Shown one piece after another: positions 1 to 44,019 of a stretch of DNA of 64,000 nt. The stretch is taken from assembly GCF_054482595.1 (NCBI RefSeq), contig NZ_CM137008.1; one strand, 5' to 3'. Position 1 is the first letter of the stretch. Every line of letters starts with the position of its first letter. Under the pieces are notes generated by a model, which was not told where the DNA came from, made no database searches, and saw only the letters and a list, made by a program, of their open reading frames with translations. A program made the translations under genes and the position numbers.

Positions 1-9
1 CAGTTCTCA

Positions 10-210
10 ATGGCGAATAGAATTGGCGCAAGAAATCTTTTTATGTCCAGCTCAGAGTCTAACCCCCTTGATATGACCTATGCCGGAATCAGTAATACAA
101 GTGCTCCAGGATTTACCATTGGACAACTTAGTATTATGCCAATGTTAGGTATGACCCTTCCTGGGGAAAATGGCTGGCCATACGGCGATCAAATACTCCA
201 TAATGATTAG
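10..210 (+). CDS. Possible 3' portion of an unknown b-region CDS that may start before the window
   Basis: ORF of 66 aa beginning 9 nt from window edge; no recognisable motif. Confidence 0.2.
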   Translation: MANRIGARNLFMSSSESNPLDMTYAGISNTSAPGFTIGQLSIMPMLGMTLPGENGWPYGDQILHND

Positions 211-372
211 AAGGTTAAGTATTTTATATTGGATATATGGCTATTGTGCTGCCATGATTCTAACAAATTATGCTTAAGAGGTGGTGCAACTCCTCTCATA
301 CAAAAAATACGTAAAATCAGTAACGGCTGGAAATAATTCAATACATACACTCTCGAAAGTGCATCAGCCAAC

Positions 373-403
373 CGCAGCACGTCTTGCATACGGCGTGTCT
401 GCG
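373..403. terminator. Imperfect inverted repeat (hairpin) upstream of the 419-aa orphan gene
   Basis: ccgcagcacg ... cgtgtctgcgg read in sequence; related to the hairpin at 1957..1990. Confidence 0.4.
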
Positions 404-617
404 GCTCTACCATATCTCCTATGAGCAACGTGTTAGCAGAGCCAAGCCACAACTCTAATTTTAATACATAATGAATGATAATAATATTAAAAATTTTCTG
501 TGTAACTAATTTACTATATGGTTTCTGATAAGAATCATTGCAAAGATTAAACAACTTGTATTACATTGACAGTTAAGCAGTTAATTTTATCACCTCTAAA
601 ATATATCAGCATCTAGC

Positions 618-1877
618 ATGCAACCTATCAAAATGGAGATTTTTATGACTAAAAAACCATGGGAAAGAAGACTTAAAGATTTATCGCACTTGCTCAAATG
701 CTGCATTGATACATATTTTGACCCTGAATTATTCCGCTTGAATTTGAATCAATTCCTCCAAACTGCAAGAACAGTAACATTTATTATTCAAAAAAACAAA
801 AACCAGATTATAGGATATGACATTTGGTATAACAATAATGTTATTGAAAAATGGAAAAATGATCCATTAATGGCTTGGGCTAAAAATTCTCGCAATACGA
901 TAGAAAAACAAGGCGATTTAGAAATGTATAGCGAGGCAAAGGCTACTCTTATTTCATCTTACATTGAAGAAAATGACATTGAGTTTATTACAAATGAAAG
1001 TATGTTAAACATTGGTATAAAAAAGTTAGTCAGACTTGCACAAAAGAAATTACCTTCATATTTAACTGAATCATCTATTATTAAATCAGAAAGACGATGG
1101 GTCGCTAATACGCTAAAAGATTACGAATTATTGCATGCCTTAGCTATAATCTATGGCAGAATGTATAACTGCTGTAACTCTCTTGGCATACAAATAAACA
1201 ATCCAATGGGTGACGATGTGATTTCGCCAACATCATTCGACTCTTTATTTGATGAAGCCAGGAGAATAACTTATTTAAAATTAAAAGATTACTCCATAAG
1301 CAAATTGTCATTTAGCATGATACAATATGATAATAAAATAATTCCTGAAGATATTAAAGAGCGTCTAAAACTGGTAGATAAGCCTAAAAATATCACTTCG
1401 ACAGAAGAGTTAGTTGACTATACAGCCAAGCTTGCAGAAACGACTTTTTTAAAGGACGGTTATCACATTCAAACATTAATTTTTTATGATAAACAATTCC
1501 ATCCAATTGATTTAATCAATACAACATTTGAAGATCAAGCAGATAAATATATTTTTTGGCGTTATGCAGCTGACAGAGCCAAAATAATAAATGCCTATGG
1601 CTTCATTTGGATATCAGAGCTATGGCTCAGAAAAGCAAGCATCAACTCCAATAAACCAATACATACAATGCCAATTATAGATGAAAGACTTCAGGTAATT
1701 GGAATTGATTCAAATAATAATCAAAAATGTATTTCATGGAAAATAGTTAGAGAAAACAAAGAAAAAAAACCGACTTTAGAAATATCAACAGCAGACTCAA
1801 AACATGACGGAAAACCATATTTCATGCGTTCAGTCTTAAAAGCAATTGGCGGTGATGTAAACACTATGAACAATTGA
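618..1877 (+). CDS. Hypothetical protein, 419 aa, AT-rich b-region cargo (moron); no recognisable domain
   Basis: Long uninterrupted ORF with ATG start; markedly AT-rich codon usage unlike neighbouring tail genes; convergent with tfa. Confidence 0.7.
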   Translation: MQPIKMEIFMTKKPWERRLKDLSHLLKCCIDTYFDPELFRLNLNQFLQTARTVTFIIQKNKNQIIGYDIWYNNNVIEKWKNDPLMAWAKNSRNTIEKQGDLEMYSEAKATLISSYIEENDIEFITNESMLNIGIKKLVRLAQKKLPSYLTESSIIKSERRWVANTLKDYELLHALAIIYGRMYNCCNSLGIQINNPMGDDVISPTSFDSLFDEARRITYLKLKDYSISKLSFSMIQYDNKIIPEDIKERLKLVDKPKNITSTEELVDYTAKLAETTFLKDGYHIQTLIFYDKQFHPIDLINTTFEDQADKYIFWRYAADRAKIINAYGFIWISELWLRKASINSNKPIHTMPIIDERLQVIGIDSNNNQKCISWKIVRENKEKKPTLEISTADSKHDGKPYFMRSVLKAIGGDVNTMNN

Positions 1878-9300: not shown

Positions 9301-9829
9301 ACGGGCGCGGCGGCAGGTTATCCACCACTACCGATGCCAGATACTGCGAGGTGGTTTTGCCCTTAATGGTGATGTCTTTTTCCGTCACCCAGCCACCGTT
9401 ACGTTGTATCTGAACCAGCAGGCGGACTTCCGATGGATTCCGGTCCCCTTTTGAGGTGGTTTCCACCAGAGCCTGCACACCGAAGGTAAAACGCAGACGG
9501 TCGATGTTTGCCGACGTGATGGTCCGGATGATCGGCGTGTCGTATTTCACTTCCGTACCCAGCACCGTCTCGGAGCCGGAGGATTCAAACCCCTCAGGCG
9601 GTGTCTGCTCCTGCTCACCTGCCCGGAACACCACCGTGACGCCGGAGATGTTGGTATTCCCCTCACTGTCCAGCACTGGCGTACTGTTCAGCAGCACGCT
9701 TTTTAATCCATCCACCGGACCTTCAATCGGCCCTTCGCTGATGGCATCGATCACACTCAGCAACTGCGTGGACTTCAGGTTGTCCTTCGCTTCGCGCGGG
9801 GTATGCCCCTTACTGCTGCCTTTACCCAT
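6353..9829 (-). CDS. J: Tail tip host-specificity protein J
   Basis: 1158-aa ORF; N-terminus [26 protein letters not shown] matches remembered lambda J. Confidence 0.95.
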
Positions 9830-9889
9830 TCGTCATGCTCCATATACGACAAAACCGCCCGCAGGCGGTTTCACATAAAACGTTTTGCA

Positions 9890-10561
9890 TCAGCGACCAA
9901 TCACCACAACCTGACCACCATCCCCTTCGTCTGCCGTGCTGATCTCCTGAGAAACCACGCGTGACCCCACGCGCATTTCACCGTACAGAACCGGCAGAAC
10001 ATTGCCCTGGGCAACCATGTTATCCAGTGAGGAGAAATAGGTGTTCTGTTTGCCGTTATCCGTTGTCTGTGTACGGGGAGTTCTGGCTTTCGGTGCCAGC
10101 ATCTGCGCCACACCACCGAGCACCATACTGGCACCGAGAGAAAACAGGATGCCGGTCATACCACCGGCCCCAATGGCTGCCCCCCATGCTGCAAGGGTGG
10201 CTCCGGCGGTAAAGAATGATCCGGCAATGGCGGCAGCCCCCAGGACAATCTGGAATACGCCACCTGACTTGGCCCCGGCGACTCTGGGAACAATATGAAT
10301 CACAGCGCCATCAGGCAGAGTCTCATGTAACTGCGCCGTTAACCCGGACGTGCTGACGTCCCGCCCGGCAATCCGTACCTGATACCAGCCGTCGCTCAGT
10401 TTCTGACGAAACACCGGGAGCTGTGTGGCCAGTGCGCGGATGGCTTCAGCCCCCGTTTTCACACGAAGGTCGATGCGGCGGCCAAATCGTTGCAAATCCC
10501 CGTAAAGGCAGATGCGCGCCATGCCCGGTGACGCCAGAGGGAGTGTGTGCGTCGCTGCCAT
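9890..10561 (-). CDS. I: Tail assembly protein I
   Basis: 223-aa ORF overlapping K by about 100 nt as in lambda. Confidence 0.9.
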   Translation of the reverse strand: MAATHTLPLASPGMARICLYGDLQRFGRRIDLRVKTGAEAIRALATQLPVFRQKLSDGWYQVRIAGRDVSTSGLTAQLHETLPDGAVIHIVPRVAGAKSGGVFQIVLGAAAIAGSFFTAGATLAAWGAAIGAGGMTGILFSLGASMVLGGVAQMLAPKARTPRTQTTDNGKQNTYFSSLDNMVAQGNVLPVLYGEMRVGSRVVSQEISTADEGDGGQVVVIGR

Positions 10562-11906: not shown

Positions 11907-12235
11907 CAGTTCACCACCTGTTCAAACTCTGCGCTGAACTCAACACGCAACATACGGACCTGCGACGACCATTTTGCGCAGGTCACCTTTATCTGCCTGT
12001 AACCATAAGGCGGCGTCCACAGAAAGGCCTTCCAGCCCCCGTGCTCAGCCAGAAACGACTCCAGCGCCGTGGCCTCTTCACGGGAGACAGACAGCGTCAC
12101 GCTGTACGTTTTCAGGTCGGCATTCAGCCCGGCAGGCGCTCGCTGGGAATAGCCATCACCAAAGCGCACTTTCCTGACGGAAGGGGCCGAAGCCACATCC
12201 ATACCGGGTTTCACTTTCCAGCGGAAGGTCTTCAT
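11906..12235 (-). CDS. M: Minor tail protein M
   Basis: 109-aa ORF; lambda order and length. Confidence 0.9.
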   Translation of the reverse strand: MKTFRWKVKPGMDVASAPSVRKVRFGDGYSQRAPAGLNADLKTYSVTLSVSREEATALESFLAEHGGWKAFLWTPPYGYRQIKVTCAKWSSQVRMLRVEFSAEFEQVVN

Positions 12236-14793
12236 CGTCCACCTCCGGAGAACAGACCACCATCGCGCATCTGTGTCTGAATTTCATCACGGGCACCCTT
12301 GCGGGCCATGTCATACACTGCCTTCATCATCTGTGGACCTGGCAGACCATTCGTACCGTCGTTCTGAATCACCACGTGATTGTTCTGATTAAAATTAATG
12401 CCTTCAGCCCGCCGCATCTGCGCCGGACTTCCGGCACCGCCCACATAACCACCCTCCGCATAGCCCCGCATCAGGCGGTACAGGTTGCCGACACCAATCC
12501 GGCTGGTTGCCTCCTTCGTGAAGACAAACTCACCACGGTGAACAATCCCCGCTGGCTCATATTTGCCACCGGTTCCCGTAAATCCTCCGGTCGCAAAATG
12601 GAATTTCGCCGCAGCTGCCTGAATGGCTGTACCGCCTGACGCCGATGCGCCACCACCAACAGCCCCGCCAATGGCGCTGCCAATACTCCCGACAATCCCC
12701 ACCATTGCCTGCTTAAGCAGAATTTCTGTCATCATGGACAGCACGGAGCGGGTGAAGCTGCGCCAGTTCTGTTCACTGCCGGTCAGCATCGCCGCCATAT
12801 TCTGCGCAATACCATCAAAGGTCTGCGTGGCTGCACTTTTAACCTGCGACATACTGTCCGTGGCACTCTCTTTCCACTCGCTCCAGCCGGACCTGAGGCC
12901 TGCCATCCAGCTCCCGCGAAGCAGGTCTTCAGCCGCCCAGGTCTTTTTCTGCTCTGACATGACGTTATTCAGCGCCAGCGGATTATCGCCATACTGTTCC
13001 TTCAGACGCTGTTCTGTGGCTTCCCGCGCTGCCTGCCGGTCAGTCAGCCCCCGGTTTTTCGCATCAATGGCGGCCCGTTTTGCCCGTTGCTGCTGTGCGA
13101 ATTTATCCGCCTGCTGCGCCAGCGCGTTCAGGCGCTCCTGATACGTAACCTTGTCGCCAAGTGCAGCCAGCTGGCGTTTGTACTCCAGCGTCTCATCTTT
13201 ATGCGCCAGCAGGGATTTCTCCTGTGCGGACAGCTGGCGACGTTGCGCCGCCTCCTCCAGTACCGCGAACTGACTCTCCGCCTTCCACAAATCCCGGCGC
13301 TGCTGGCTGATTTTCTCATTTGCTCCGGCATGCTTCTCCAGCGTCCGGAGTTCAGCCTGAAGCGTCAGCAGGGCAGCATGAGCACTGTCTTCCTGACGAT
13401 CGCCCGCAGACACTTTCACGCCGGACTGTTTCGGCTTTTTCAGCGTCGCTTCATAATCCTTTTTCGCCGCCGCCATCAGCGTGTTGTAATCTGCCTGCAG
13501 GATTTTCCCGTCTTTCAGTGCCTTGTTCAGTTCTTCCTGACGGGCGGTATATTTCTCCAGCGGCGTCTGCAGGCGTTCGTAAGCCTTCTGCGCCTCTTCG
13601 GTATATTTCAGCCGTGACGCTTCGGTATCGCTCTGCTGCTGCGCATTTTTGTCCTGTTGAGTCTGCTGCTCAGCCTTCTTTCGGGCGGCTTCAAGCGCAA
13701 GACGGGCCTTTTCACGATCATCCCAGTAACGCGCCCGCGCTTCATCGTTAACAAAATAATCATCCTTGCGCAGATTCCAGATGTCGTCTGCTTTCTTAAA
13801 CGCAGCCTCTGCCTTAATCAGCATCTCCTGCGCGGTATCAGGACGACCAATATCCAGCACCGCATCCCACATGGATTTGAATGCCCGCGCAGTCCTGTCT
13901 GCCCAGGTCTCCAGCGTGCCCATGTTCTCTTTCAGGCGGCGGGTCTGGTCATCAAACCCTTTCGTTGCGGCCTCGTTCGCCGCCTGCAATGCCCCGGCTT
14001 CATCGCCGGAACGCTGCAACTGAGCAACATACGCAATCTGCTCCGCCGTCACGTTATGGAACTGGCGTGCCATCGCCGTCAGCCCCGACGTCGGGTCTGT
14101 GGTCAGCTTCCCGAAGGCTTCAGCGACCTTGTCCACCTCCACGCCGGATGCAGAGGAGAAACGCGCCACACTCTGGCTGATGGACGCAATCTGAGCCTCA
14201 CCGCTTACCCCCGCCTTAACCAGTGCGCTGAGTGACTCGCTGGTCTGGTTAAACGTCAGCCCTGCCGCCTGCCCGGCTCTGGACAGGACCAGCATACGAT
14301 CTGCCGTCAGTCCCGCCTGATTGCCGGAAAGGACCAGCGTTTTGTTGAAATCGGACAGGGTTGAGTTGCCCTGATACCAGGCATACGCCAGCGCACCGGT
14401 CGCCACCGCCAGCGAGGTGGCCCCCACCATCGGCAGGGTGATCGCACCGGCAAGCCCCCTGAACATGGGGATCATCCCGCCGAAGGAGTCCTTAACCTGA
14501 CCACCCTGTTGCAGCAGGATCAGCCACGGACTTTGCCCGCCTGCAAGCTGCGTGGCCACGTCGGTGAACTGTGCAGGCAGCATACGCATGGCGGCTTTAT
14601 ACTGTCCGACGGAAATCCCCGCTTTCTGTGCAGCCAGCGCCTGCCGGTTCATTGACTGTTCAACGACTGCCGCTGTTTTTTTCGCATCACTTTCCGTACC
14701 GGAAAAATGACGCCTGACTCTGGCCATCTGCTCGTCAAATCTGGCCGCATCCAGACTCAAATCAACGACCAGATCGCCTACCGGTTCAGCCAT
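12232..14793 (-). CDS. H: Tail tape measure protein H
   Basis: 853-aa ORF, same length as lambda H; coiled-coil-rich. Confidence 0.95.
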   Translation of the reverse strand: MAEPVGDLVVDLSLDAARFDEQMARVRRHFSGTESDAKKTAAVVEQSMNRQALAAQKAGISVGQYKAAMRMLPAQFTDVATQLAGGQSPWLILLQQGGQVKDSFGGMIPMFRGLAGAITLPMVGATSLAVATGALAYAWYQGNSTLSDFNKTLVLSGNQAGLTADRMLVLSRAGQAAGLTFNQTSESLSALVKAGVSGEAQIASISQSVARFSSASGVEVDKVAEAFGKLTTDPTSGLTAMARQFHNVTAEQIAYVAQLQRSGDEAGALQAANEAATKGFDDQTRRLKENMGTLETWADRTARAFKSMWDAVLDIGRPDTAQEMLIKAEAAFKKADDIWNLRKDDYFVNDEARARYWDDREKARLALEAARKKAEQQTQQDKNAQQQSDTEASRLKYTEEAQKAYERLQTPLEKYTARQEELNKALKDGKILQADYNTLMAAAKKDYEATLKKPKQSGVKVSAGDRQEDSAHAALLTLQAELRTLEKHAGANEKISQQRRDLWKAESQFAVLEEAAQRRQLSAQEKSLLAHKDETLEYKRQLAALGDKVTYQERLNALAQQADKFAQQQRAKRAAIDAKNRGLTDRQAAREATEQRLKEQYGDNPLALNNVMSEQKKTWAAEDLLRGSWMAGLRSGWSEWKESATDSMSQVKSAATQTFDGIAQNMAAMLTGSEQNWRSFTRSVLSMMTEILLKQAMVGIVGSIGSAIGGAVGGGASASGGTAIQAAAAKFHFATGGFTGTGGKYEPAGIVHRGEFVFTKEATSRIGVGNLYRLMRGYAEGGYVGGAGSPAQMRRAEGINFNQNNHVVIQNDGTNGLPGPQMMKAVYDMARKGARDEIQTQMRDGGLFSGGGR

Positions 14794-15220
14794 ACCGGAC
14801 TCCTCCTGCGATCCCTTCTGATACTGTCATCAGCATTACGTCATCCTCCGTCATGTCCGCCACATCCGGGGAAGCGGGGATAACTTCATTCCCGTCCGGG
14901 CCAAAGCGGACACCTCCGGCAAGCCCTGCCGCTTTCTGCATCAGCACATCATCTTCAGGCTCTTCGTCAGCCTCACGCCGGTTCAGCAGACTGAAATCCA
15001 GCGGATGCATATCCGGATCGCTGAAAAACAGGCTGAGCACGGTGTACGTCAGCCCGGAAAAGTGCATATCCAGCAGAACATCATGAAAATAATGGGTACT
15101 GTAAAAGCGGTGCCAGTCGGCATACTCCGTGGATGACATCCCGGCAAGCATGGCGCGCCAGTCGGGTCGCCCCATCTCGCGCGCCAGTTTCAGGGCAAAA
15201 CTCAGCTCACCGTCGAACAC
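14786..15220 (-). CDS. T: Tail assembly chaperone T segment (expressed as G-T fusion by -1 frameshift)
   Basis: ORF in -1 frame overlapping the 3' end of G; lambda G/T architecture. Confidence 0.8.
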   Translation of the reverse strand: MFDGELSFALKLAREMGRPDWRAMLAGMSSTEYADWHRFYSTHYFHDVLLDMHFSGLTYTVLSLFFSDPDMHPLDFSLLNRREADEEPEDDVLMQKAAGLAGGVRFGPDGNEVIPASPDVADMTEDDVMLMTVSEGIAGGVRYG

Positions 15221-15624
15221 TTTCCCGCAGAAACAGGCTCTGCAGGCCCGGCGTCCTCTGCCTGTTCAGGGGCATTATTCACCACAAACTCAGACATTCC
15301 GGACAGACGTAACACCACGTTTTCAGCCTGAGCAATTGCCTCCGTGGGCCAGGTGGTAAGCACTTCCTGCTCAATCTGCGTAATGGCTTCATTCATGGAC
15401 GGCAGCTTTGTCTTCTGCGGATGGTTATGCCACAGAGACATCGCCACCAGAAACGCCCCGCCTCTGATAAGATCCTCTACAGACACCTGCAGGTTGCCAC
15501 TGGATTCAGCCTTTTTTTCCTGCTCTTTCAACCAGGCAAGATGCTCAATACGCTGCAGGGCTGACAGTTCAGAAAGCGTGACGGTCACACCGTTATGTTC
15601 AAATGATTCGGTTTTCAGGAACAT
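15202..15624 (-). CDS. G: Tail assembly chaperone G
   Basis: 140-aa ORF, lambda length and position. Confidence 0.9.
   Translation of the reverse strand: MFLKTESFEHNGVTVTLSELSALQRIEHLAWLKEQEKKAESSGNLQVSVEDLIRGGAFLVAMSLWHNHPQKTKLPSMNEAITQIEQEVLTTWPTEAIAQAENVVLRLSGMSEFVVNNAPEQAEDAGPAEPVSAGKCSTVS
15219..15225 (-). other. Programmed -1 ribosomal frameshift slippery heptamer GGGAAAG (G to G-T)
   Basis: Plus-strand ctttccc read at 15219..15225, just upstream of G stop. Confidence 0.6.
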
Positions 15625-15639
15625 CGCTGACTCTCCGGA

Positions 15640-16410
15640 TTAACTGGCGGTGACGGTAATTTCTGCAACCGCAGCAAACTCACCATTACCGGATACAACC
15701 GGAATGTTGACCTTGCCTGCAGCAACGCCGTTCACGGTGATGGTCATACCACTGACCGACACGGTGGCTTTTGTTTTATCCGCAGACACCGCACGGAAGC
15801 TCTTGTCGGTTACACCTTCCGGCTGGAATGCCACGGTCAGCGTGGTGCTCTGCCCTTTCACTACGGAAGCACTGGCTGGCGTTACCGTCATGCCGGTTGC
15901 TGCCGTCACCGTACTGCGATCTTCAGCCATCGACGGGCGTCCCACATTGGTGACCTTCACCGTGCGGGTGATCACTTCCTTAGCCGTCACCGCTTTACCG
16001 ATACTGCTGACCCAGCCACGGAACACATCGACCGTGCCGTTCGGGAAGCGGATTTTATAGGCACGGGTATCACCTTCATTAAACCACGCCAGCAGCGCCT
16101 GCTGCCCCTGCTCTCCGGGCATCCACGCCAGCGTGAAGCTGGTATCTCCGGCTGATTTCTGCCCCTGCCCGGTCGCAGTCCAGTCCGCATCTTCATCATC
16201 GAGATAGCTGTCGTCATAGGACTCAGCTGTCAGTTCGCCGGGCGTCAGGTCTTTAACTTTTGCCAGACGCGACCAGTCCACGTCTGAAAGCGGGTTCGCA
16301 TAAGGGTCACCGTTCCCCTTATAAACCCACAGTGTGGTCCCGGCACCTTTCACCGGCATTGTTGGATTTGGTACAGGCATAGCGTCCTCACATTTCATAG
16401 GTAATGACAT
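15640..16410 (-). CDS. V: Major tail protein V
   Basis: 256-aa ORF between U and G; C-terminal Ig-like region. Confidence 0.9.
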
Positions 16411-35938: not shown

Positions 35939-36274
35939 TTGATGAGAGGCGTTATGGAACCGGTCAAAATTAAACCATCTGTGGATTATATTGAAACCTA
36001 TGCGGACTTCGCTAGTTTTGCTCCACTACCGGGAGCGGAAAAAAATCTCATTTGTATACATTTTATCGCAAACAAGTCAATACCTGCGGTACTATCCCAA
36101 AATGATATACCAGATCAACCAGGTAGAGCGAATATGCAGATAGGCTCTGTAAATGAACTCAATCAGCAATGCACTGTGATAATGCCAATGGCACAACTAA
36201 AGGCTCTTCAGGAGAATATAGTTCTTCTTTTCGAACAATTAGAGGCACAAAACTCTAATGGAGCGAAGTCGTAA
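35939..36274 (+). CDS. Hypothetical protein A of the cI-downstream operon (likely start at MEPVKIK, 35954; about 106 aa)
   Basis: ORF preceded by gagagg SD-like sequence; stop overlaps next start (TAATG); no recognisable domain. Confidence 0.65.
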   Translation: MMRGVMEPVKIKPSVDYIETYADFASFAPLPGAEKNLICIHFIANKSIPAVLSQNDIPDQPGRANMQIGSVNELNQQCTVIMPMAQLKALQENIVLLFEQLEAQNSNGAKS

Positions 36275-36957
36275 TGCAACAACCGGAAGAAGTAGGTGAT
36301 TTAACTATTACTTACAAAACATCAAGTATTGTTAAACCACTGCAAGTTTCCCTGAATAACGTTAATACTCGCGATTTCATGATGTTCATGGAAACAGCAA
36401 AAGGTAATCTGTTTTCTACGCCTATTTCCTCTTATTCACCAAAAAACATGGTGGATGATGCGACCAATTCCCAGCTAACTGCTACAATCGTAGATAAAGG
36501 AGGGGTTGCCGATTGTAAAGGACAATCTAATGTTATCCCACCGTACGAGGAAACTCCTATACAGGGAACCGCAATGTCCGATTTGAGCAGAAACGAAATA
36601 CAGGCACTTCTGAAGGCAAATAAAGCTGAAGTGGATGCAGTGGCCTCAAAAATGCAGGCTGATATGGCCAAATGGCGTGAACTAATGGCTTCAGATATAA
36701 AGGAGATGAAGCATTTAGTTGTTACTCAGCACGAACAAATCAACAGTCGTCTGGACATACAATCGAGTAGAATTGAGAGTGCCCTTGACTCCCAATCAAA
36801 AAAGATCGATGCAGCTCTTTCTGTTCAAGAGGCAAAGTTAGAAGGTAAGCTTAGTGATGTTAAGCTTGATATAATCAAATGGGCCCTTGGCTTGCCAGCA
36901 TTAGCATTTGCTGTATATAAAATCTACGGATTGCTCTCTGGAGTCTCAACCCCCTAA
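36274..36957 (+). CDS. Hypothetical protein B of the cI-downstream operon: coiled-coil protein with C-terminal transmembrane anchor (227 aa)
   Basis: ORF translationally coupled to the upstream gene; heptad-like stretch in residues ~110-200; hydrophobic tail IIKWALGLPALAFAVYKIYGLLSGV. Confidence 0.7.
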   Translation: MQQPEEVGDLTITYKTSSIVKPLQVSLNNVNTRDFMMFMETAKGNLFSTPISSYSPKNMVDDATNSQLTATIVDKGGVADCKGQSNVIPPYEETPIQGTAMSDLSRNEIQALLKANKAEVDAVASKMQADMAKWRELMASDIKEMKHLVVTQHEQINSRLDIQSSRIESALDSQSKKIDAALSVQEAKLEGKLSDVKLDIIKWALGLPALAFAVYKIYGLLSGVSTP

Positions 36958-37198: not shown

Positions 37199-37227
37199 GA
37201 ACCAATAGTTCATTATTATCACCATCA
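37199..37227 (+). promoter_or_regulatory. Candidate pL (-35 TTGATT, 17-nt spacer, -10 CATTAT) with overlapping oL-like sites
   Basis: Read in sequence; tcgtacttatggttc motif shared with oR region. Confidence 0.4.
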
Positions 37228-37263
37228 GCAGGACGCTGGAAGCCAAACGGAACAGACTGGCAG

Positions 37264-37308
37264 GCTCTTTAAACAACGTCGAACTCTCGACTACGTGGCT
37301 GAAAAGCC
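37264..37308 (+). promoter_or_regulatory. nutL (boxA GCTCTTT ... boxB hairpin GGCUGAAAAGCC)
   Basis: gctctttaaacaacg...ctacgtggctgaaaagcc aligns with nutR candidate. Confidence 0.6.
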
Positions 37309-37407
37309 AGATCACCCAACCACATAAGCTGTGGGATGCAATGCCGAAGCAACCGTCTCAGGAGGAGCTTCGAGATTGCATCGCCAAAGTTTATTCGGGA
37401 GGAATCT

Positions 37408-37680
37408 ATGTCCAGAAAAACAAAATTTAAAGGCACCGCAGCTTCTCGCCGTAGAGCCCGTCGCGCAAATCTGCAAAGTCAGGAGGCGATCAGCTCCGAC
37501 AAGCTACACAGACCAACCCCTTCACGAGTGGTCTTGCAATGCAAGCGCAAACCAGCAATGAGAGCAGAAGTTATAACTCTGACAACGTTGACCAGAAAAT
37601 ATGAAGGTTCAACTTGTCTTCCGAACGTAGCTCTTTACGCGGCAGGCTACCGGAAATCAAAACAACTGACGGCGAGATGA
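37408..37680 (+). CDS. N: N-type transcription antiterminator with N-terminal arginine-rich motif
   Basis: Strong SD gggagg before ATG; MSRKTKFKGTAASRRRARRANLQ arginine-rich motif; position downstream of pL/nutL. Confidence 0.75.
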   Translation: MSRKTKFKGTAASRRRARRANLQSQEAISSDKLHRPTPSRVVLQCKRKPAMRAEVITLTTLTRKYEGSTCLPNVALYAAGYRKSKQLTAR

Positions 37681-43221: not shown

Positions 43222-44019
43222 ATGACCACTATTACCAAAGAACGTATTGAATTGTTCATTAAAAATCCGCTTGAAAACGGACTTACTCGTGGCGAACAAA
43301 TGGAACTGGCACGAATTGCACTGGCATCACTGGAACGCGAACTGATTCGCCACGAGCATGCCAAATGGTCTGACTCCACATTTGGCTGCGTTGGCCCCAT
43401 TGGTCCACTGAAACACCTCTCAAAAGAGGCTCTGGAAGCCGCAGCCGAACCAGACGATCTCAGCGAGTGGGCTGATATGCATTTCCTGTTGTGGGATGCA
43501 CAGCGCCGTGCTGGCATCAGCGATGCTGAAATTACCGCTGCTATGGAAGATAAATTGAAGATCAACATGGAGCGCCAGTGGCCTGAACCAATAGATGGTG
43601 AGCCTCGCTTGCACATTAAAGAACCCGGCAACTCTCCGGTAATTCCGGATGGTTTATCCACGGTATGCGCTGAGGCTTATCAGGTTGTAGGAGTTATGGC
43701 AGATGCGCTTGGTGTATTCGGTGATGCAGCAGTACAGAAAGTTCTGGATAACCTGTCACAGCAAAAACTTGTTCACAGAGATGTGCTGCCGTTCTCGCTT
43801 CCGGTGACTCCGGATGGTTGGATAAGCTGTAGTGAGCGAATGCCGAAAGAAACGGGTGACATTATTGTTGTTTCGGATGGCATTGTAATGTCCGGGATTT
43901 CTTATTCTCGTCGTGACGGGTTCTATATAGCCGCATTGGAGTACGACGACGATGAGCCAATTGGCGGTGTAACCCACTGGATGCCTCTACCAGAACCGCC
44001 TCGATTAAAGGAGCTATAA
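43222..44019 (+). CDS. Phage protein with C-terminal DUF551-like domain (N-terminal part possibly DUF550-like)
   Basis: 265-aa ORF; C-terminal W..C.ERMP ... VTHWMPLPEPP pattern typical of DUF551. Confidence 0.6.
   Translation: MTTITKERIELFIKNPLENGLTRGEQMELARIALASLERELIRHEHAKWSDSTFGCVGPIGPLKHLSKEALEAAAEPDDLSEWADMHFLLWDAQRRAGISDAEITAAMEDKLKINMERQWPEPIDGEPRLHIKEPGNSPVIPDGLSTVCAEAYQVVGVMADALGVFGDAAVQKVLDNLSQQKLVHRDVLPFSLPVTPDGWISCSERMPKETGDIIVVSDGIVMSGISYSRRDGFYIAALEYDDDEPIGGVTHWMPLPEPPRLKEL

Follow-up and report, generated by a model that had tools for sequence, protein, structure and literature searches.

The overlapping G and T reading frames of an intact lambda-like prophage, which adjoins torS in an E. 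coli chromosome, almost certainly constitute a lambda-type programmed −1 ribosomal frameshift, by which two tail-assembly chaperones would be made from one start codon. The window analyzed here is a stretch of 64,000 nucleotides from contig NZ_CM137008.1 (RefSeq assembly GCF_054482595.1), and the case for the frameshift is built on the anatomy of the locus, the phase of its slippery heptamer, its orthology to lambda G/T, the absence of start signals that would belong to T independently, and the conservation of a slip motif across the whole family. Frameshifting at lambda G/G-T was described by Levin, Hendrix and Casjens (1993) and treated again by Xu, Hendrix and Duda (2013, 2014), as cited in PMC5009743 and PMC3296357, and was generalized to long-tailed dsDNA phages by Xu, Hendrix and Duda (2004), as cited in PMC5009743, PMC3296357 and PMC10885494. 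A sequence-only reading had delimited the signal at 14786–15624, whose two ends are exactly the T stop (14786) and the first base of G (15624), and had called it not novel, a judgement that the lambda work of 1993 and its 2004 generalization bear out. That reading gave no strand; all features described below lie on the minus strand.

Genomic context of the G/T pair

Gene G, the zero-frame product of the locus, occupies 15624..15202 (minus strand), ends in a TGA at 15204..15202 and encodes a tail assembly chaperone, gpG, of 140 amino acids. It matches Pfam PF06894 (Phage_TAC_2, E = 4.7e-53) and the NCBIfam equivalog TIGR01674 (phage_lambda_G, 192 bits against a cut-off of 74), and the RefSeq annotation of strain 4FM lists a ‘gpG’ with identical coordinates. 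The T reading frame (14786..15220, minus strand) consists of 144 codons plus a stop at 14788..14786, and it matches Pfam PF06223 (Phage_tail_T, E = 2.1e-14) as well as the NCBIfam equivalog TIGR01715 (189 bits against a cut-off of 77), with the latter match beginning five residues past the junction. Directly upstream of G lies gene V, the major tail tube protein (15640..16380, minus strand, coordinates from the annotation; Pfam PF16461 Phage_TTP_12, 3.1e-70, plus Big_2), and T is followed by gene H, the tail tape measure protein of 853 amino acids (12232..14793, minus strand), whose first 8 nt overlap the end of T and whose Pfam matches (PF06791 TMP_2, 7.4e-70, and PF09718 Tape_meas_lam_C) agree with its annotation. 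The minus-strand order is thus V, G, T, H, with the overlapping G/T pair set between the tail-tube and tape-measure genes, and it forms part of a late gene order, Z-U-V-G-T-H-M-L-K-I-J, that is the same as in lambda and in which every gene is intact. Homologues of the G/T pair occur in 3,690 of the 5,426 complete E. coli genomes. A tRNA scan of the window found no tRNA genes, and the AT-rich cargo ORFs had no Pfam or PADLOC match.

Position, phase and background of the slip site

Both elements named in the sequence-only reading, a GGGAAAG at the 3′ end of G and a T frame open in −1, are present. The heptamer, read G_GGA_AAG (Gly-Lys), lies at 15226..15220 (minus strand); it begins on the third position of a G-frame codon, 22 nt before the G stop, and after a slip the tRNAs would re-pair on GGG_AAA. 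Relative to G, the −1 frame opens at 15265, 61 nt short of the G stop, and runs on to 14786, which takes it 139 codons past that stop. Both frames are open across 15202..15265 (minus strand), and a slip within this stretch would give a G-T fusion, predicted to comprise G residues 1–135 and 144 T-frame residues (279 amino acids). GGGAAAG is the sole X_XXY_YYZ heptamer in phase in the overlap, where a search for alternative slip sites returned no other in-phase candidate; an out-of-phase GGGCCCG that lambda and HK630 carry is absent from the window.

Statistically, two features that might be taken as evidence carry little weight. Counting both strands, the window holds six copies of GGGAAAG where shuffles give an expectation of 7.06, and in 13 of 43 gene-like ORFs a −1-frame ORF 100 or more codons long passes the gene stop, because neighboring genes often overlap. 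Since the heptamer is not over-represented and the overlap topology is common, neither is evidence alone. Phase is more informative: X_XXA_AAG is scarce in phase in the window's own genes, at 4 of 15,960 codons, which corresponds to P ~0.005 for an overlap of 20 codons, and against the same background the probability of any in-phase X_XXY_YYZ in the overlap is ~0.05. The case for the slip site is carried by its phase, its position and its conservation, and of these conservation is the decisive evidence.

Conservation in lambda and more distant relatives

The sequence-only reading had further described the site as conserved and ‘as in lambda’, and both descriptions held when relatives were compared. 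The 839 nt of the G/T region align without gaps to lambda 9711–10549 at 93.9% nucleotide identity, the G/T overlap shows zero differences, and the context of the slip site is identical from 17 nt before the heptamer through 40 nt after it. The T protein is 100% identical in amino acids to lambda T, with three nucleotide changes that all fall at third positions and are synonymous in the −1 frame, whereas the same three substitutions are non-synonymous in the other two frames. Beyond lambda, every one of the 182 related loci that could be used has a slip-prone A-rich motif in phase on the homologous Lys codon (GGGAAAG in 81, GGAAAAG in 69, CCCAAAA in 28 and AAAAAAG in 4), and it is kept while the flanking DNA diverges, including in loci whose T domains are only 32–40% identical. 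The −1-frame peptide, a Lys followed at the junction by VFDGELSFALKLAREMGRPDWRAML, is kept from the first post-slip codon among relatives with T domains down to that same identity, and in 17 diverse relatives conservation of the T-frame peptide likewise sets in with the first post-slip codon. Evolutionarily, these patterns show purifying selection in the −1 frame from the junction onward, with the T frame coding there. The records of N15, phi80 and LLS label the homologous position a −1 slippery sequence. Two related loci, L011 and L099, had odd match lengths and were considered as natural in-frame G-T fusions; we read them instead as damaged or mis-sequenced copies, because the slip site is kept in both and the indels lie elsewhere in G or T.

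Alternative explanations

The same comparisons bear on whether a frameshift is needed at all. T could be an ordinary separate gene, initiated at the GTG at 15220..15218 that begins on the last base of the heptamer and overlaps the end of G; RefSeq/PGAP and the lambda reference record both annotate a T CDS from this codon, and short overlaps between neighboring genes are common. That annotation is a convention and not evidence, and we consider an independently initiated T extremely unlikely. The 18 nt upstream of the GTG (gcctgtttctgcgggaaa) contain no Shine-Dalgarno (SD) sequence, nor does one precede any candidate start codon of the T frame, among whose relatives no start codon is conserved. 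The GTG itself is absent from PhiR12_1, VT1-Sakai, N15, mEp213, LLS and Flotzy, yet all six keep the −1-frame peptide right up to the slip site, and three of them (mEp213, LLS and Flotzy) offer no in-frame start codon until 69 nt downstream of the conserved peptide. By contrast, the slip motif is missing from none of the 182 loci, and the reported products of the lambda G/T region are gpG and gpGT (PMC3296357, PMC5009743). It is also conceivable that the site is a relic, its motif inherited from a lambda ancestor and non-functional in a prophage that is defective or whose late genes are never expressed. Many E. coli prophages are cryptic, and a few related loci (the L011 and L099 mentioned above) have indels in G or T, but here the late genes from Nu1 through the tail fibre are all full length, as are int, xis, the cI-like repressor, O, P, Q and the lysis genes. 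Phages that have been recovered as viable particles, PhiR42_1 among them, match 90% of the late region at 96% identity, the isolated phages Turner and PhiR46_1 match G/T at 98.8%, and the substitutions in T are all synonymous, so that a relic is very unlikely.

A G-T fusion might, lastly, arise during transcription, with the RNA polymerase inserting or skipping a base within the A/G run. Some relatives, the Stx and VT1-Sakai phages, do have a longer A run (AAAAAAG), but the run here is merely GGG plus AAA, and the homopolymer runs known for transcriptional slippage are much longer than this. The motif is, in addition, always in the phase required for tandem tRNA re-pairing. Slippage by the polymerase is in use in other systems (PMC5009743), but in lambda the rate of the shift responds to modification of tRNA-Lys, a translational effect (PMC3296357), and we regard transcriptional slippage at this site as vanishingly unlikely. 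A ribosomal −1 frameshift at G_GGA_AAG is the explanation that we retain.

Putative stimulators of the shift

Stimulated −1 frameshifting of the dnaX or IS-element type is defined by a stable RNA structure ~5–9 nt 3′ of the slip site and an SD-like element ~6–17 nt upstream. Upstream, the heptamer is preceded by ...GCCGGGCCTGCAGAGCCTGTTTCTGC, with no SD-like stimulator in the ~6–17 nt range; the nearest purine-rich element, AGAGGA, is 27 nt away. Downstream, a putative RNA domain spans 15142..15212 (minus strand) and consists of a closing stem with two enclosed hairpins. The 5′ arm of the stem (CGGUGAGC, 15212..15205) begins 7 nt after the heptamer, is followed directly by the G stop codon, and pairs with GCUUGCCG (15149..15142), enclosing a small hairpin at 15202..15186 and a near-invariant, GC-rich hairpin at 15185..15152. 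The GC-rich hairpin alone was rejected as a canonical stimulator, being ~33 nt from the heptamer and thus too far; it is also uninformative because it is nearly invariant, and it makes sense only as a component of the larger domain, whose closing stem begins 7 nt from the heptamer.

Structurally, the minimum free energy fold has −42.2 kcal/mol (z = −1.87), and against a synonymous-codon null z is −2.28 for the window and −1.30 for lambda, within a range of −1.3 to −3.0 against the protein-preserving null. Among 17 diverse relatives, 82% of cells are paired, compared with 24–46% in slid controls, and nine pairs change on both sides, a number matched by 1 of 500 shuffles. RNAalifold recovers the closing stem, and the lambda, N15 and phi80 lineages show a degree of covariation. 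When sequences were folded independently, the domain appeared only in the lambda, Stx, N15, phi80 and Klebsiella lineages; a 3′ structure universal to all T-domain relatives was discarded, with no common fold in the mEp460/Fels-1 clade and a different one in the Vibrio clade. On 3′ stimulators for lambda G-T, the reviews consulted are silent either way. Taken together, these data on the 3′ domain are only suggestive. We raise as a tentative and rather doubtful possibility that an RNA domain of ~70 nt (15212..15142, minus strand) pauses the ribosome on G_GGA_AAG and helps to set the G:G-T ratio, in which case the lambda-type shift would not be stimulator-free and the domain would have been kept with compensatory changes in the lambda, Stx-phage, N15, phi80 and Klebsiella lineages, with a different hairpin in the Vibrio clade.

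Predicted function and significance

Functionally, we infer the shift and its rate in this prophage by homology to lambda, where −1 frameshifting at G_GGA_AAG leaves ~96% of translation in the zero frame and the gpG:gpGT ratio is critical for tail assembly (PMC3296357, PMC5009743, PMC7618472), and where both products are needed for assembly and are absent from the mature virion (PMC5009743). The heptamer itself is highly shift-prone in E. coli (PMC5009743). If the lambda literature carries over in its shift frequency of ~4% (G:GT ~30:1), its tRNA mechanics and its assembly role, the majority of ribosomes would translate G from 15624 to its stop at 15202 and release gpG (140 amino acids), while in a few per cent of cases the Gly-tRNA on GGA and the Lys-tRNA on AAG would slip back by one base and re-pair on GGG_AAA. 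The slipped ribosomes would then bypass the G stop 22 nt downstream and read the T frame to 14786, yielding gpG-T (279 amino acids). As in lambda, the tape-measure protein H would be coated by many copies of gpG and few of gpG-T, the T domain would recruit the tube protein V, and both chaperones would depart before the tail is completed.

Biologically, nothing changes with this locus: it adds a further instance of a recoding signal that was characterized in lambda in 1993 and is conserved across long-tailed phages. Its practical value is one of annotation. Because T is entered in RefSeq and in the lambda reference as a CDS of its own that begins at an internal GTG, the 279-aa G-T product is missing from protein databases for thousands of genomes. 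In addition, tail assembly requires a fixed G:G-T ratio, one that is sensitive to how the host modifies its tRNA-Lys (PMC3296357), and therefore an intact slip site probably marks a prophage that is still able to build tails.

Comparison with known frameshift systems

The E. coli dnaX tau/gamma site (A_AAA_AAG) belongs with the present one to the bacterial class of slip sites that end in A_AAG and are decoded by tRNA-Lys (mnm5s2UUU). The dnaX shift is far more efficient than that of lambda G-T, and it depends on an upstream SD-like element and on a hairpin a few nucleotides downstream. The prophage locus differs in having no SD-like element within ~25 nt upstream and a 3′ structure that is only suggested, and its shifted product is longer rather than shorter. 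Much closer are the gp14-gp15 pairs of N15, phi80 and HK225 (G_GAA_AAG), which share homologous G and T domains, a junction on the equivalent Lys codon and a heptamer starting 22 nt ahead of the G stop, at a position that their records mark as a −1 slippery sequence. They differ in a shorter T domain, of ~110–115 residues, and in the heptamer GGAAAAG, which departs from a perfect X_XXY_YYZ in that GAA, in the P site, would re-pair on GGA.

Lambda G/G-T itself has the same genes in the same order and of the same lengths (G 140 amino acids, T frame 144 codons, fusion 279 amino acids), with the heptamer in equal phase and at an equal distance, 22 nt from its start to the G stop. The two part ways in G, where 23 of 135 residues differ, clustered at residues 31–55 and 73–122 and not near the slip site, and where nucleotide identity is 88% compared with 99.3% in T; the prophage G is a mosaic allele that it has in common with phages Turner and PhiR46_1. 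Unlike lambda, moreover, the prophage is sited beside torS. More broadly, the locus shares with the chaperones of long-tailed dsDNA phages the two overlapping ORFs between the major tail and tape-measure genes and the low-level shift, here predicted, that gives a second product with a C-terminal extension. Most members of that class have this arrangement in common but not the sequence, whereas the present locus, already known biology, is in its sequence a close orthologue of the founding example, lambda G/T.

Identity, prophage context and mosaicism of the G/T unit

[quoted passage not shown] G matched Pfam PF06894 (E=4.7e-53) and the NCBIfam equivalog TIGR01674 (192 bits, cut-off 74), and T matched PF06223 (E=2.1e-14) and the equivalog TIGR01715 (189 bits, cut-off 77), with the TIGR01715 match starting only 5 residues past the junction. 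All 839 nt aligned without gaps to phage lambda 9711-10549 at 93.9% identity, spanning lambda genes G (9711-10133) and T (10115-10549), and the adjacent genes are those of the lambda tail, ordered as in lambda (Z, U, V, G, T, H). The arrangement is thus as in lambda, as the sequence-only reading had held, and strand (minus) is the only item that its description lacked. A lambda G/T at essentially lambda coordinates is also carried by MW057783.1 (“Campylobacter phage CJLB-4”, 48,361 bp), whose identity to the window, 94.0%, equals lambda’s own; this record looks like lambda DNA labelled Campylobacter by contamination or mislabelling.

The window is E. coli chromosomal DNA, collinear with NZ_CM137007.1 of strain 4FM (constant offset), and holds a complete, lambda-like prophage whose int and xis end adjoins torS. 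Its genes run int, xis, repressor, O, P, Q, lysis genes, Nu1 and A through J, and tail-fibre genes, all full length, and its late region shares 96% identity over 90% of its length with isolated phages such as PhiR42_1. Two small early-region ORFs, 37205..37430 (+) and 43222..43341 (+), are flagged as pseudogenes in the strain 4FM annotation, one frameshifted and one truncated, and are the only visibly damaged genes of the otherwise intact prophage. Past the tail-fibre assembly gene lies an AT-rich cassette (1..1877, +; 30-33% GC versus about 50% in the prophage) comprising a 410-aa ORF (645..1877) and the end of another (1..210), both “hypothetical” in RefSeq and both without matches in Pfam and PADLOC searches; it resembles prophage cargo gained by horizontal transfer.

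Differences from lambda are unevenly distributed within the G/T unit, with 48 of the 51 in G upstream of the slip site, none in the overlap and three in T. Upstream of the slip site (15227..15624, minus strand), G shares 88% identity with lambda and has 23 changed amino acids, which cluster at residues 31-55 and 73-122; in the overlap and T, identity rises to 99.3% and the protein is unchanged. The three T substitutions are all at third positions and synonymous in the −1 frame, so the T protein is identical to lambda’s, and they are non-synonymous in the two other frames. This sharp mosaic boundary (15227..15624 versus 14786..15201, minus strand) suggests recombination within G, and the window’s G allele is common to phages Turner and PhiR46_1 (98.8%) and to an IMG/VR locus (L011, 2695420576_000005).

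The slip site and its conservation among relatives

Scripted frame arithmetic placed the slippery heptamer GGGAAAG at 15226..15220 (minus strand), with its first G as the third codon base of the upstream ORF (G_GGA_AAG, Gly-Lys) and its start 22 nt ahead of that ORF’s TGA. A −1 slip leads into a frame that stays open between 15265 and a stop at 14788..14786, and the 61 nt over which both frames are open hold no second in-phase X_XXY_YYZ heptamer. The heptamer at the 3′ end of G and the open T frame, both proposed from the sequence alone, were therefore borne out. Taken singly, neither heptamer count nor −1 overlap topology is informative: the window has 6 copies of GGGAAAG versus 7.06 expected from dinucleotide shuffles, and in 13 of 43 gene-like ORFs a −1-frame ORF of 100 codons or more extends past the gene stop, such ORFs being frequent because adjacent genes overlap by a few bases. 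In-phase X_XXA_AAG occurs at 4 of the 15,960 codon positions of the window’s own genes, giving a chance probability of about 0.005 in a 20-codon overlap (about 0.05 for any in-phase X_XXY_YYZ). The combination of features is informative, and the comparative data are decisive. In-phase A_AAA_AAG was also seen inside two unrelated ORFs, 36274..36957 (+) and 618..1877 (+), at 157 and 856 nt, respectively, before their stops; these are probably chance occurrences.

Across relatives, the invariant element is the junction Lys codon, while the motif on it is lineage-specific: G_GGA_AAG, A_AAA_AAG, G_GAA_AAG (an imperfect X_XXY_YYZ) or, in Vibrio phages, C_CCA_AAA (census loci, including the related loci L003 (N15), L006-L008 and L091-L097). 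Heptamer start and G stop are 22 or 10 nt apart. In the ten loci compared first, namely the window plus nine relatives (lambda, Turner, PhiR12_1, VT1-Sakai, N15, mEp213, LLS, Flotzy and HK630, the last equal to lambda), the motif is GGGAAAG, AAAAAAG or GGAAAAG, always at 22 nt; Klebsiella Kp4865-4, Fels-1, mEp460 and Ayreon have GGAAAAG starting 10 nt before the stop, and Vibrio HY01 has C_CCA_AAA. Three viral-contig scans and the phage records supplied a census in which all 182 usable loci had a motif on the homologous Lys codon (GGGAAAG 81, GGAAAAG 69, CCCAAAA 28, AAAAAAG 4), and in-frame fusion of G and T was seen in no locus; six loci were left out as unusable, either ending before the T motif or, in L099 (IMG/VR 2526164621_000006), having an indel inside T. 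L011 and L099 were considered as natural in-frame fusions and rejected, as both keep the slip heptamer and are put out of frame by indels elsewhere (in L011, within G ahead of the site); either the prophage copies are damaged or the sequences contain errors. In N15, HK225, mEp460 and Ayreon the annotation places a rho-independent terminator or stem-loop between the major tail gene and G, which may be an alternative way to lower chaperone and tape-measure expression relative to tube protein; the V-G gap is 15 nt in the window and lambda, with no terminator or stem-loop.

By database convention, T would instead be initiated independently at the GTG overlapping the heptamer: RefSeq/PGAP and the lambda reference annotate it as a stand-alone CDS (15220..14786, minus strand) with no joined G-T feature. 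However, when the fusion was rebuilt in the nine relatives, the −1-frame peptide was kept from the first codon past the slip (Lys followed by VFDGELSFALKLAREMGRPDWRAML versus Lys followed by ALASELKFVLNLAREFGRPDWRAML), no Shine-Dalgarno (SD) sequence was found before any candidate T start codon, and the annotated GTG was missing in six relatives, with the first in-frame start codon of mEp213, LLS and Flotzy lying 69 nt downstream of the conserved peptide. The universal slip motif of the census likewise argues against a separate T start, and in the records of N15, phi80 and LLS the homologous heptamer bears a −1 slippery sequence annotation. That the site is a decayed relic is unlikely, given an intact prophage and purely synonymous drift in T. 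Also unlikely is production of G-T by transcriptional slippage, as the run is only GGG plus AAA and the lambda shift rate responds to tRNA modification (PMC3296357), which points to translation. Translation of T by −1 frameshifting is very probable. Homologues are widespread (3,690 of 5,426 complete E. coli genomes) and only a few phage records (phi80, LLS) give the joined product, so the 279-aa G-T is absent from much of the annotation.

A possible 3′ RNA element

Folding of the 100 nt 3′ of the heptamer predicted a putative RNA domain (15142..15212, minus strand; −42.2 kcal/mol, z −1.87) whose closing stem, beginning 7 nt past the heptamer, pairs CGGUGAGC (15212..15205) with GCUUGCCG (15149..15142) and encloses a near-invariant GC-rich hairpin. 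When 17 relatives were aligned on the slip site and scored, the structure, itself derived from one of the tested sequences, had 82% of cells paired versus 24-46% with partners slid. Nine pairs changed on both sides (shuffle mean 4.0, matched in 1 of 500 shuffles) and 22 further pair types were seen (shuffle mean 17.1, matched in 2 of 500), in a sample of few independent lineages and a region under strong coding constraint. At one closing-stem pair, where the first base of a Gly/Ser/Arg codon meets a third position open to synonymous change, the lambda group has G-C, the N15/phi80 group A-U and mEp460 C-G. RNAalifold recovered the closing stem unprompted, and independent folding of 26 dereplicated sequences gave an equivalent stem in all lambda, Stx, N15, phi80 and Klebsiella representatives except two loci (L059 and L088), but not in the Vibrio clade (a different long hairpin) or the mEp460/Fels-1 clade (no common fold). 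Against a null that kept the T protein and resampled synonymous codons, native sequences were modestly more stable (z −1.3 to −3.0; window −2.28, lambda −1.30), with a weaker, inconsistent excess in the remaining clades (z −1.7 to +1.9, the codon-usage table being ill-suited to Vibrio). These predictions are no more than suggestive of a conserved 3′ RNA domain. Levin and colleagues reportedly saw, in 1993, some downstream-sequence influence and no simple required structure.

Mechanism and relation to known systems

In lambda, according to PMC3296357 (citing Levin et al. 1993), about 96% of translation keeps the zero frame and the rest slips −1 on the heptamer, bypassing the G stop to yield gpGT; citing the 2013 and 2014 papers of Xu et al., PMC5009743 describes H, the tape measure, as bound by the G parts and V, the tube protein, as bound by the T domain. 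Few heptamers shift as readily in E. coli as G_GGA_AAG (PMC5009743). The two Lys codons, AAG and AAA, are both decoded by tRNA-Lys (mnm5s2UUU); when this tRNA is hypomodified, shifting becomes more frequent and phage yield falls (PMC3296357, PMC7618472). As the window matches lambda exactly in slip site, whole overlap and T domain and has orthologues of V and H, the same −1 slip at a similar rate would be expected in this prophage.

The site does not qualify as a stimulated site of the dnaX type, because no upstream SD-like element was found near it and its 3′ structure is putative. By every feature that sequence can test, it belongs to the lambda G/G-T family; the biology of the site is already known, and the sequence-only reading accurately called it not novel and included for completeness. 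From lambda G/G-T itself, this locus differs only by its mosaic G allele.
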